64,000 nucleotides of DNA from Candidatus Melainabacteria bacterium 17Bon1m (GTDB taxonomy: Bacteria > Cyanobacteriota > Vampirovibrionia > Obscuribacterales > Obscuribacteraceae), in the NCBI GenBank assembly GCA_032128875.1, contig JAVLKG010000003.1:577008-641007 (forward strand), in the 5' to 3' direction. Each line of letters opens with the position of its first letter. Position 1 is the first letter of the stretch. Below, piece by piece: positions 41,480 through 44,655 of this stretch. Below the pieces are notes generated by a model. That model worked only from the letters and a program-made list of their open reading frames with translations, was not told the origin of the DNA and searched no databases. The translations under genes were made by a program, and so were the position numbers.

Positions 41480-42790
41480 TTAAGGTGTCATTCGGTTGAT
41501 GTCGCGCGGAAAAAGTGCGGCCAATTTTACGGACGGCAAGCCGAGCAATTGTTTTGCAATGCGCTCCAAGCCGATGGCAAAACCACCGTGTGGAGGCATT
41601 CCATATTGGAAGCACTGCAAGTAGTCCTTGAACGCTTCTGGATCCAACCCTCTTGCCTGCATTGCGCAGACCAGCTCTTCATGTCTGTGTATGCGCTGTC
41701 CGCCGGTGGTGATTTCCAACCCGCGGAAGAGCAAGTCGAAGCTGCGGCTAGACATTTCCGTTTCGGTCGGCAATGGCATGGCATAAAATGGCCTCACGCT
41801 GAGCGGATATCCGGTGATGAAGACCAGATCCGAATTTTCCGTTTTGTGGAAGTGTTCGCAAATGATCTTCTCGCCTTCTGGGTCGAGGTCGGTTTTTTCC
41901 TGAGTGCCTTTTTTCTGATAGCTGTTGATGATCTCGACAGCTTCGGCCAGCGTAACACGAGGAATGGTGCCGATTTGCGGTATCTTGGCGCCCCACAATG
42001 CAAGTTCGTCGGCACAAGATTGAGAGACCTTCTCGAACATATGTTTGACCAACTTGTTGAGTAAGTCCATCAGGTCGTGCTCGTTTTCGATGAACCCCAT
42101 CTCGACGTCCATGCTGATATATTCGTTGAGATGACGGGTTGTATCGTGCTCTTCGGCGCGATAGACCGGAGCAATCTCAAAAACTCGCTCCAGTGCGCCG
42201 ACCATAATCTGCTTGTAGAACTGCGGGCTTTGCGCGAGAAAAGCTTCTCTGCCGAAGTAGTTGAGCTTGAAGAGCTGTGCGCCACCTTCGGTTCCAGTTG
42301 CAACAATCTTGGGAGAGTGAATCTCGGTGAATTGCCTGTCGCGCAAAAATTCGCGGAATGCTTCACAGAAAACAGCTTCTATCTTGAAGATTGAGCGTAC
42401 TTTCGGACTGCGCAATGTGAGCGGACGGTAGTCGAGCATGGTCGAAAGCGACAGTCCATCGACTTTGCTTTGTTTTCCGATTTCTACTGGAAGCGATTGT
42501 GCAGGCGTTGAGAGCAGCGTCAATTTCTTCAGTTGAATTTCGAAACCTTGTCCCTGAGGGCGCGCAACGACCACACCCTCTGCGATGACAGGCGTCTCTG
42601 GTGCTGCTTGTCCCACGACAGCAAGCACCTCTTGCTCATCAGCAACCAACTGCACACTGCCGTCCATGTCTCTGATTACGACAAAGGCGAGGTTGCCCAT
42701 GTCTCTCAGAGACTGGATGTGACCGTGTATACGCACGGTGGCTCCCGTGTGTTTCGACAGCTGGCTAGAGCTGATTTCTTCTGTCATCAT
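41480..42790 (-). CDS. aspS: Aspartyl-tRNA synthetase, short archaeal/AspRS2 type (probably non-discriminating, Asp/Asn)
   Basis: OB-fold LRDMG..FVVIRD, GTEGGA, LAQSPQFYKQ (AspRS rather than AsnRS signature), YRAEEHDTTRHLNEY, GLEITTGGQR, GMPPHGGFAIGLER; 436 aa with no GAD insertion. Confidence 0.92.
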   Translation of the reverse strand: MMTEEISSSQLSKHTGATVRIHGHIQSLRDMGNLAFVVIRDMDGSVQLVADEQEVLAVVGQAAPETPVIAEGVVVARPQGQGFEIQLKKLTLLSTPAQSLPVEIGKQSKVDGLSLSTMLDYRPLTLRSPKVRSIFKIEAVFCEAFREFLRDRQFTEIHSPKIVATGTEGGAQLFKLNYFGREAFLAQSPQFYKQIMVGALERVFEIAPVYRAEEHDTTRHLNEYISMDVEMGFIENEHDLMDLLNKLVKHMFEKVSQSCADELALWGAKIPQIGTIPRVTLAEAVEIINSYQKKGTQEKTDLDPEGEKIICEHFHKTENSDLVFITGYPLSVRPFYAMPLPTETEMSSRSFDLLFRGLEITTGGQRIHRHEELVCAMQARGLDPEAFKDYLQCFQYGMPPHGGFAIGLERIAKQLLGLPSVKLAALFPRDINRMTP

Positions 42791-42829
42791 GACCTTACTC
42801 CTTGTGGTTTTTGGTTAGGTTTTCGTCGT

Positions 42830-42864
42830 AAAAGAAAAACCGCAAGAACCTTGATTCTTGCGGT
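42830..42864 (-). terminator. Attenuator terminator in the aspS leader
   Basis: Minus strand ACCGCAAGAA-TCAAGG-TTCTTGCGGT-TTTTCTTTT: perfect 10-bp stem plus U-tract, 40 nt before the aspS ATG. Confidence 0.88.
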
Positions 42865-42925
42865 CGTAAAGCTTTTTGGTCGTTGCCTGTTTTTACTAGG
42901 TGTGCCGCCTTACTAACCGCAAGAA
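42855..42925 (-). promoter_or_regulatory. Antiterminator helix of the aspS attenuator
   Basis: UUCUUGCGGUU-A-GUAAGGC (42925-42907) pairs with GCUUUAC-GACCGCAAGAA (42872-42855), sequestering the terminator 5' arm. Confidence 0.82.
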
Positions 42926-43045
42926 GCGATTATTATCGTTGTCGTTATTATTATTGTTGTCGACAAAGGCGGGCGATGCGGCGCCGACCATACCCTTGAG
43001 AGGCAGGCGGGAAGGCGCTTTTGCGGTGATTGAATGTACCGGCAT
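42896..43045 (-). CDS. Asn/Asp-rich attenuator leader peptide (49 aa; 31 aa if started at ATG 42991)
   Basis: MPVHSITAKAPSRLPLKGMVGAASPAFVDNNNNNDNDNNRFLRLVRRHT; 11 consecutive Asn/Asp codons at 42929-42961; AGGT SD 6 nt before ATG 43045. Confidence 0.82.
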   Translation of the reverse strand: MPVHSITAKAPSRLPLKGMVGAASPAFVDNNNNNDNDNNRFLRLVRRHT

Positions 43046-43239
43046 CTGATTACCTGAATTACTGTTTTGTATCCACATATAGTGGATTGTGAGTGCGCGC
43101 ATTTGCAACGCCCTCTTTGCTGAATGCTACCGCCGCCATTAGCAGGCGTCAATAGTTTGTGAAATCGGAAACCTGAACTGTTATTAGTCTGTACCAGTCA
43201 GCCAGTTTTGATCTGGTCCGGTATGCAGCGCTAAGGTCA

Positions 43240-44655
43240 TTAGTCGGTTTCAGTTTTTGGTGCTGCTGGTTGGGCTTCGCCTTCACGAGCCAGTTTGCTC
43301 TGATCATCAAGCGAACGCTTCAAATCAAGAGAAATCCAGTCGAAGATAGTGCGATTGCCTTCTGTCGGATTCAACTGATCTTTCAGATGTTTTGTGCCGC
43401 GTAGGGGCTTGTAGCCATCTATGAAAGTGAGGTGATCGATGTTGCGGAAGACACGCGCAGTGCGCACATCAGTCAACGATTTGATACTGGCGACGTCCGA
43501 TTCTTTAGCCAGCGGCATCGAACCGATTACCGAGTTCGGCAGGCACAGAGCGCTCTGCAACGGTGTTATGCCGTCGTTGAGACCGTAGACATATTTCGTT
43601 TTCGCCTTTTCTGTAGCAGATGGATTGCAGACAACCGTCGTTATTTCGCGGTTGAGCATTCGCAATACAGGGTGCTCCAAAGCAAAGTGAGAAGGCACTT
43701 TCAGAGTGAAGAAAGTGTACGGAGCCATGACTCCGCGCTCGATAAACCGCTCTGCTTTCGGCATCAAATAAGGGTTGAGCAAGTATCCGCCGTAAGCAAC
43801 AATTTTCTTCTTGTTGATCGGGCGAGCGTTAAGAGCGAGAAGTTCTCTGTTCTCAGCTTCTGCCACTGTCAGCTTGCCGCTTGGTCCGAAGGGCAGTCTG
43901 GACTTGAACATGCCCACTTCCGGAACGCTCGTGTCAGCGTTGTCCCAGCGCAAATCTGTCATTAACACTGAATTGCGCTTGAAGTAAACGCGATAGGCAA
44001 TGCTATGGTCGATGCGAGTCCAAGGGAAGCAGAGGTTTTTGTAGACACCGTACTGCAGCCAGTCTGTCGAAAATAGCGGCGAGCCGTGGAAAGGAACGCC
44101 GAAGGCCATAAAGAGTTTGATCTTGTCTTCAGTGTCCTTATCGGAGAATGCTTCGTAAGCGACATTACCGCCCATGCTTAAAGCCATCATCGTGATGGGG
44201 CGATTGTTTGTCAGTGTATAAAGCTTGGCAATGACGTTGCGCAATTCCGGCACGGTTTTATCCAACTTGTCTGATGTTGAATAGCGGGCCATGTATATTT
44301 TGAATTGCTTGTCGAGCTGCTGGTCTTCCTTTATGTGCTTGATAACTTTAGTCCAGCGGAAATTGCGGTGAGTCTCACCGTGCAAGCCATGAACCATAAG
44401 CAGAGGTTGGCGATCGCCGAGAGGGGAACTATCATATTCGTAGAGAGTCGCCACCTCAGGCTTCACTCGAAGCTGCTTTAATGTAGGCATAGGAGGCAAT
44501 GCTGACTGCACTACCGGTTGAACCGCTTCAAACTTTTCAGCCGAGCTCGTCAACATTTTTTTCGCCGACTCAGCCCCAAATGCAGACGATGAGAACGTCA
44601 CCGCGCATAACATGGTGGATGCCAAGATGGTTTGAAATCTCGCACTTTGGTACAT
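43240..44655 (-). CDS. Secreted alpha/beta hydrolase (lipase/PGAP1-like)
   Basis: Signal peptide; LLMVHGLHG, ALSMGG nucleophile elbow, GVPFHGSP, NDGITP, IDH. Confidence 0.78.
   Translation of the reverse strand: MYQSARFQTILASTMLCAVTFSSSAFGAESAKKMLTSSAEKFEAVQPVVQSALPPMPTLKQLRVKPEVATLYEYDSSPLGDRQPLLMVHGLHGETHRNFRWTKVIKHIKEDQQLDKQFKIYMARYSTSDKLDKTVPELRNVIAKLYTLTNNRPITMMALSMGGNVAYEAFSDKDTEDKIKLFMAFGVPFHGSPLFSTDWLQYGVYKNLCFPWTRIDHSIAYRVYFKRNSVLMTDLRWDNADTSVPEVGMFKSRLPFGPSGKLTVAEAENRELLALNARPINKKKIVAYGGYLLNPYLMPKAERFIERGVMAPYTFFTLKVPSHFALEHPVLRMLNREITTVVCNPSATEKAKTKYVYGLNDGITPLQSALCLPNSVIGSMPLAKESDVASIKSLTDVRTARVFRNIDHLTFIDGYKPLRGTKHLKDQLNPTEGNRTIFDWISLDLKRSLDDQSKLAREGEAQPAAPKTETD

Follow-up and report, generated by a model that had tools for sequence, protein, structure and literature searches.

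A predicted Asn/Asp-codon attenuator upstream of an accessory, archaeal-type aspartyl-tRNA synthetase gene in Obscuribacterales

The trp, his, thr, leu and pheST attenuators of E. coli combine a leader ORF carrying a run of cognate codons with an antiterminator and an intrinsic terminator. In trp, a leader that is not translated does not fold into the antiterminator. For ilvB1 of M. tuberculosis, passages of a published study describe how a stalled ribosome permits the antiterminator to form, while a ribosome reaching the stop codon masks it (PMC13236596).

As regards aspartyl-tRNA synthetase (AspRS) genes, an Asn-specific T-box riboswitch is reported on clostridial aspS-gatCAB operons (Saad et al. 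2012, as cited in PMC4206432), and excerpts of another paper describe an aspS leader RNA in Shewanella and give no peptide (PMC2659441); the main text of Weinberg 2017 (PMC5737381) does not mention aspS. A leader peptide has been listed in Deinococcus deserti: in Table S9 of de Groot et al. 2014 (PMC4007540), the non-discriminating AspRS is assigned a putative leader peptide for attenuation, Deide_10019. Its peptide, MFAALANNNDNDPH, contains an Asn/Asp run, and its transcription start was mapped by RNA-seq at the ATG. Neither helices nor a functional test appear in the passages and table of that paper, whose main-text passages are silent on aspS and asparagine.

The first-pass annotation of the DNA studied here knew of no characterised Asn/Asp-codon attenuator controlling aspS. 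This holds as far as function is concerned, the full-text literature having yielded no functional test of an Asn/Asp leader (supplements: PMC4007540 only; subscription papers thinly covered), yet the putative entry for Deide_10019 dates from 2014. Attenuators of this kind have been predicted once before, in Deinococcus, and apparently never tested. As for the phylum, reliable data on cyanobacterial attenuation were lacking according to excerpts of a 2016 paper (PMC4833913), and no report of attenuation in Melainabacteria was found in the full-text literature (subscription papers again thinly covered).

Here, we describe a leader in a 64,000-nucleotide stretch of the genome of Candidatus Melainabacteria bacterium 17Bon1m (the window) that very probably is, in kind, a ribosome-dependent transcription attenuator. 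New are the evidence on its helices, the finding of comparable leaders at 29 of 30 Deinococcus loci, and leaders at clostridial aspS-gatC-gatA operons.

The leader and the gene behind it

The features of the locus are collected in Table 1; the positions that the first-pass annotation had given for the leader ORF, the Asn/Asp (Asx) run, the arm and the terminator all match the sequence. Three nucleotides (CGC) separate the run from the antiterminator arm (42925-42907), and the leader stop codon follows 8 nt beyond the arm. The run mixes both synonyms of Asn and of Asp and is, as had been argued, not a simple microsatellite. The terminator (42865-42838) with its U-tract is likewise present 40 nt 5′ of ATG 42790, its 10 Watson-Crick pairs being extended by a G-U pair at either end.

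Table 1. Features of the leader and its downstream gene (positions in the window)
Feature	Position	Strand	Basis or remark
Sigma-70-type promoter, predicted	43124..43152	-	-35 at 43152-43147, -10 at 43129-43124
Shine-Dalgarno-like AGGT, short, 5′ of leader start	43052..43055	-	read from sequence
Leader ORF, 49 codons	42896..43045	-	ATG 43045, TAG 42898-42896
Control codons, n = 11 (8 Asn, 3 Asp)	42929..42961	-	read from sequence
Antiterminator arm, 11-nt core, competing for the terminator 5′ arm	42915..42925	-	core pairs conserved, flanks covary
Antiterminator arm, 7-nt extension, terminator-compatible	42907..42913	-	folding
Partner of the 7-nt extension	42866..42872	-	folding
Shared segment: antiterminator 3′ arm and terminator 5′ arm	42855..42865	-	folding, covariation
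Terminator 3′ arm	42838..42848	-	covariation
U-tract of the intrinsic terminator	42830..42837	-	read from sequence
Regulated gene: archaeal-type AspRS, 436 aa	41480..42790	-	family annotated aspartate--tRNA(Asn) ligase

Two leader starts, 43045 and 42991, had been considered. We place the start at 43045 because an in-frame ATG homologous to it, 78-90 nt 5′ of the run, is kept in 13/13 same-genus genomes (ORFs of 47-50 codons). ATG 42991 was rejected as the main start: among the same-genus genomes, it is found only in the window's own. In 11 of the 13, an AGG lies at most 14 nt from the leader ATG. Transcription would start near 43117. The candidate promoter is the sole promoter-like site within 1 kb, yet 0.9 such sites are expected by chance; a TTGAC-17/19-TAnnnT site occurs 5′ of the Asx run in 28 of the 29 homologous loci introduced below. 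Further upstream (43240-44655, minus strand) lies a 471-aa gene with weak alpha/beta-hydrolase matches only, which is syntenic upstream of the leader in 23/29 loci.

The downstream gene had been called aspS. It belongs to the archaeal-type AspRS family and is not the bacterial-type aspS, as judged by its scores against NCBIfam PRK05159 (552.8 bits, cut-off 353) and TIGR00458 (420, cut-off 368.4) and by its best PDB match, T. thermophilus AspRS2 (1n9w, E 2e-119). A bacterial-type AspRS is encoded elsewhere in the genome, and the archaeal-type enzyme is a second, accessory copy rather than the housekeeping one.

The genome also encodes AsnRS, GlnRS and GatB (AsnRS scores above cut-off in 57/61 genomes of the order), and its tRNA(Asn) starts with U1-A72, a pair that specifies amidation according to section 48 of PMC9976931. 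Taken together with the bacterial-type AspRS, this is the set-up of Deinococcus and Thermus (passages of PMC2330236). Two AsnB-family genes are present, so the tRNA route to asparagine may be dispensable; no match to AsnA was found in the genome (93% complete). The window AspRS may be a non-discriminating enzyme that charges tRNA(Asn).

A histidine and a proline of the anticodon-binding domain are the residues that we take to determine tRNA(Asn) recognition and non-discrimination. The proline of the APGG loop is found in 6/6 Deinococcus enzymes, 29/32 enzymes encoded behind T-boxes and 4/17 Obscuribacterales enzymes, and is missing in the window enzyme. The histidine column holds Gln in the window enzyme and His in 4/17 Obscuribacterales enzymes. 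As both residues hardly vary outside this lineage, their loss counts against non-discrimination by the window enzyme. The anticodon-domain loop (residues about 25 and 76-83 of the window enzyme) is unusually variable among the Obscuribacterales copies.

Conservation of the run and its reading frame

To compare homologous loci, the 30 best from 61 genomes were taken, one being the window's own; 29 of them have upstream DNA. At least six Asx codons within 12 codons plus an ACCGC-type terminator are found at 29/29 of these loci, the window included, across AspRS proteins whose identity goes down to 53%. In a second collection, the leader was present at 18/18 Obscuribacterales-like loci for which upstream DNA was available; 11 of these are additional to the loci above. 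The comparative check proposed by the first-pass annotation, a conserved Asx run and covarying helices in related leaders, therefore speaks for an attenuator, both helices covarying as described in the next section.

Chance controls point the same way. A strict DNA pattern matched in 45/96 other genomes of the family and in 0/204 other genomes of the class, and its reversed control in 6 genomes; 28 of the 30 pattern-match loci inspected adjoin an AspRS gene. The remaining two (L197 and L198) have no AspRS nearby and were taken as chance matches. When the genome's 175,082 short ORFs were scanned for a stretch of 12 codons with at least six Asn/Asp, together with a terminator and a downstream gene, the window leader was the sole Asn/Asp match. 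Runs of at least seven Asn/Asp codons occur 12 times in the genome, and each of the other 11 is part of an open frame at least 248 codons long. One homologous locus, L025, has an AspRS match with an internal TGA near its end.

Across the 29 loci, the run comprises 258 Asx codons (AAT 133, AAC 53, GAC 37, GAT 35), interrupted at 33 scattered positions that all preserve the frame. A start codon and open frame exist in the Asx frame at 29/29 loci, in frame +1 at 8/29 and in frame +2 at 0/29. Within the leader, the run and the tail behind it are conserved and the N-terminal stretch is variable: inside the genus, the N-terminal peptide drifts while its start ATG survives in-frame length changes, and in other genera as few as 6-7 codons precede the run. 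The reading frame of the arm differs between loci, while that of the run is constant. At L017, the leader ends immediately before the arm, as in Deinococcus.

These frame data bear on two other readings. One is a real RNA switch with another trigger, be it a protein such as AspRS or AsnRS or a small ligand, for which the AAY/GAY tract would serve as an unstructured spacer or binding site. The tract is indeed of low complexity, A-rich and little structured, and translation of the leader rests on inference. Yet a spacer hardly accounts for a run made up of AAT, AAC, GAC and GAT only and broken solely by frame-keeping interruptions, for a start and frame that outlast the changes in length between 78 and 90 nt, for a constant frame in the run next to a shifting one in the arm, or for the recurrence of these codons in Deinococcus and Clostridia, where the helices are unrelated. 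We consider this reading very unlikely.

The other is an attenuator that senses Thr or Ile in the +1 frame, in which the window has 11 Thr/Ile codons. That frame is open through the run in 28/29 loci, and the genome scan picked it up as a Thr/Ile leader, but a +1-frame start downstream of the promoter exists in only 8/29. Its codons are almost exclusively ATA, ACA, ACG and ATG, which is the forced shadow of AAY/GAY, and the His leader of the same genome casts the same Thr/Ile shadow. With an AspRS as the target in addition, the probability of this reading comes close to negligible.

Competing helices and a folding model

A T-rich tail follows the hairpin at 29/29 loci. In the window, the antiterminator helix of about 18 bp that had been proposed forms in RNAduplex at -25.3 kcal/mol (18 pairs), compared with -16.8 for the terminator by itself; the whole 283-nt leader shows only a modest excess of stability over shuffled sequences (z -2.5, with 2/200 equally good). 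The two structures had been called mutually exclusive. This is true of the 11-pair core, but the minimum-energy fold contains the terminator and the GTAAGGC/GCTTTAC half of the long helix side by side, which limits the exclusion to that core. The 7-nt extension may act as a nucleation helix. A weak 7-pair local hairpin lies within the arm, and a search by folding for a trp-type anti-antiterminator (1:2 helix) found no strong one.

Covariation was assessed in 25 leaders, with one for the window's main genus clade, aligned on an anchor chosen independently of the pairing partner; two of 27 (L022 and L047) had no anchor and were dropped. The core four pairs of both helices are possible in 25/25 of these leaders, and since they are invariant, they show conservation rather than covariation. 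Outside the core, 136/225 cells of the antiterminator are paired, as against 118.0 +/- 5.1 after permutation (reached in 4 of 20000), and 169/225 flank cells of the terminator, as against 128.3 +/- 4.9. Likewise, the duplex of each arm with its own partner averages -19.7 kcal/mol, compared with -15.5 +/- 0.7 for permuted pairs. Because relatedness inflates permutation tests and the own arm is the best partner in only 5/18 loci (the arm window being mis-set for four loci), we regard covariation of the antiterminator as moderate. In one genus-level group (L022 and L047-L049), the antiterminator uses a different register of the terminator 5′ arm, without the usual core match.

Could the hairpin simply be a constitutive terminator of the upstream hydrolase gene that happens to lie next to a microsatellite? 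The gene is co-oriented and its synteny at 23/29 loci would fit, but the leader is kept in six loci without an upstream-gene match, the hairpin lies 400 nt beyond the stop codon of that gene and behind a conserved promoter, a third copy of the arm sequence covaries, and the synonymous codons of the run are mixed. This explanation is extremely unlikely.

All parts of the trp/his/thr/leu/pheST-type architecture claimed for this locus, i.e. start and frame, cognate run, terminator and an exclusive antiterminator of 11 pairs, were found. The leader has the sequence features of the classical attenuators, bar a trp-type anti-antiterminator: it shares with the E. coli examples and ilvB1 a cognate-codon leader ORF, an alternative antiterminator and an intrinsic terminator, but differs in its Asn/Asp codons and in having an accessory synthetase as its target. 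Our preferred reading is that this ribosome-dependent attenuator induces the accessory archaeal-type AspRS, with a shortage of Asn-tRNA(Asn) as the main signal, which we hold to be probable.

In such a mechanism, RNA polymerase would start near 43117 and a ribosome would initiate at 43045. Stalled in the Asn-first run, the ribosome would leave the downstream arm free to capture the emerging terminator 5′ arm in 18 pairs, and polymerase would clear the U-tract before the hairpin displaces the antiterminator, so that the gene is transcribed. With charged tRNAs at hand, the ribosome would move onto the ten codons past the run and cover or unwind the arm; the 12-pair hairpin would then form and transcription end near 42830-42837. 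With more of this AspRS, GatCAB would receive Asp-tRNA(Asn), and Asn-tRNA would be replenished with no need for free asparagine. Leader translation, termination, the kinetics and the identity of the sensed tRNA are all inferred here.

A footprint model in which the ribosome extends 18 nt behind the A-site codon and 10 nt beyond it, applied to transcripts ending in the terminator loop, agrees with the first half of this scheme. With the ribosome on the second Asn, capture by the antiterminator exceeds 0.8 in 27/29 loci, which bears out the proposal of the first-pass annotation that a stall in the run leaves the antiterminator free. In the window, as the ribosome moves through the ten codons behind the run, capture declines from 1.0 to about 0.1. 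The companion proposal, that a ribosome at the stop codon melts the arm, does not survive in the model: the ribosome there masks only the half of the arm that forms the 7-nt extension, the competing core is re-exposed, and capture is below 0.2 in only 1/29 loci (at equilibrium and ignoring pairing around the ribosome). Masking may instead occur on the codons between the run and the stop, or through steric or kinetic effects.

For the complete leader with a stalled ribosome, the terminator still wins at equilibrium in most loci (below 0.5 in 4/29), and the switch must therefore be kinetic, the antiterminator being the first to form and persisting until polymerase is past the U-tract. When no ribosome is present, the model folds the leader into the antiterminator (mean 0.92), so that read-through is predicted on removal of the start codon. 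In this the window leader, in which no strong 1:2 helix was found, differs from E. coli trp.

Three RNA-labelled sequencing runs were rejected as transcript evidence; their 14-28 kb contigs with flat depth look like DNA. In a lake metatranscriptome, a 472-nt contig of a relative spans leader, terminator and gene start, an observation from one contig of one study to which we give no evidential weight. Its far end lies about 66 nt 5′ of the ribosome-binding AGG; at L004, the -10 box lies at 69 nt.

Related leaders, the sensed tRNA and implications

Among the 30 best Deinococcus loci of 61 genomes, 29 have at least four Asx in 10 codons upstream of AspRS, followed, as judged by eye, by an arm rich in G and a T-tailed hairpin. 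One Deinococcus locus of the second collection has a promoter, a leaderless Asn/Asp ORF and a terminator. Deide_10019 and the window leader have in common an Asn/Asp run directly 5′ of the same AspRS family. They differ in that Deide_10019 is a leaderless ORF of 14 codons with the arm at its stop codon, whereas the 49-codon ORF of the window is led by a Shine-Dalgarno sequence and contains the arm, and the helix sequences differ.

The window leader itself is not a T-box, going by sequence comparison: the T-box model (RF00230) finds nothing in 42000-44500 at E values up to 10 and does match 3/20 other loci, and an Rfam search of the leader region found no relevant match. Of the 61 other loci of the second collection, most carry a T-box motif or nothing. 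The motif is present at 34 homologous loci, and 22 specifiers were readable by regular expression; 11 are AAC, all followed by gatA, and 11 are GAC, all in Chloroflexota without a gat match. Compared with the Asn T-box as described in the portions of the literature cited above, the window leader has the same presumed signal, uncharged tRNA(Asn), and the same enzyme family, but the T-box binds the tRNA directly, whereas the leader would use the ribosome as its sensor.

In Clostridia, where leader helices were judged by eye, five aspS-gatC-gatA operons have Asn-rich leaders (L161, L163 and L166 clear-cut, also L158 and L164), and sister loci of these operons carry AAC T-boxes. Six further clostridial loci (L071, L080, L089, L092, L099 and L147) share a conserved ORF of 12-13 codons that ends in three or four Asp codons about 250-330 nt 5′ of the AspRS match; behind it come helices that look like alternatives, a terminator and another conserved block. 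These Asp-ending leaders gave no Rfam match (four searched at gathering score, plus L092). At two Chloroflexota loci (L107 and L113), the stretch between the T-box terminator and the AspRS gene holds short ORFs that are rich in Asp and have strong ribosome-binding sites; as these ORFs sit behind T-box motifs, they were not counted as leaders.

Which tRNA is sensed? With an accessory archaeal-type AspRS as the target, Asn-tRNA rather than Asp-tRNA is expected to be the main signal. Asn is also the likelier signal because, at least 27 nt away from the arm core, Asn codons outnumber Asp codons by 70 to 9, and because AAC T-boxes go with gatA. Conversely, Asp-tRNA(Asp) might be the main or an equal signal of the same attenuator, a spare and possibly discriminating AspRS being induced by a shortage of either Asx tRNA. 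In keeping with this, 72 of the 258 Asx codons are Asp, and they lie near the arm, at the point that decides masking; most Obscuribacterales enzymes have lost the conserved loop proline, the T-boxes of the Chloroflexota homologues read GAC (11/11 readable), and one clostridial clade has Asp-ending leaders with no gat genes nearby. Asn codons, however, make up the other 186 and occupy the positions at which a stall frees the whole arm, and GatB is retained although AsnRS and GlnRS are present. We therefore judge a leading or equal role of Asp unlikely and keep Asn-tRNA(Asn) as the probable main signal.

As to the origin of these genes, a quick tree (53 of 104 rows) places Obscuribacterales on one branch (99) and Deinococcus on another (100), both joining a clostridial branch of leader- and T-box-bearing genes at SH-aLRT 93 with no order inside. 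FastTree groups Obscuribacterales with Deinococcus at 0.80, a grouping that the quick tree does not settle. The trees would allow a single origin of the leader-bearing AspRS genes, no more. More tentatively, the leader may be a two-input sensor, with early Asn codons reading the product of the tRNA-dependent asparagine route and late Asp codons its substrate side, that moved with one accessory-AspRS clade across Obscuribacterales, Deinococcus and Clostridia and is swappable with the Asn T-box.

The window leader has company in its own genome. A His-rich leader with a terminator precedes a HisG gene (G000:C12:178588-178665, plus strand; L177), a Leu-rich one a LeuA-like gene (G000:C14:10507-10587, plus strand; L178) and an Ile/Leu/Val-rich one an IlvD-like gene (G000:C14:12614-12697, plus strand; L178). 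A Phe/Tyr/Trp-rich leader with a terminator (G000:C2:249548-249598, minus strand; L176) lies ahead of a DAHP synthase and a chorismate mutase/prephenate dehydrogenase fusion. Together with these histidine, leucine, branched-chain and aromatic leaders, the Asn/Asp leader is an indication that classical attenuation operates in relatives of the cyanobacteria that do not photosynthesise.

What was one row of a 2014 supplement becomes a conserved regulatory family with defined helices. A leader of this kind also occurs in Deinococcus, a genus amenable to culture and genetic engineering, which makes the question directly testable. It may be through such leaders that cells lacking a T-box regulate tRNA-dependent asparagine formation. 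If the two-input reading were true, the indirect asparagine route would be switched on through translation itself; the leader would then be the first asparagine attenuator to be worked out and an instance of amino-acid attenuation in the phylum to which the cyanobacteria belong.
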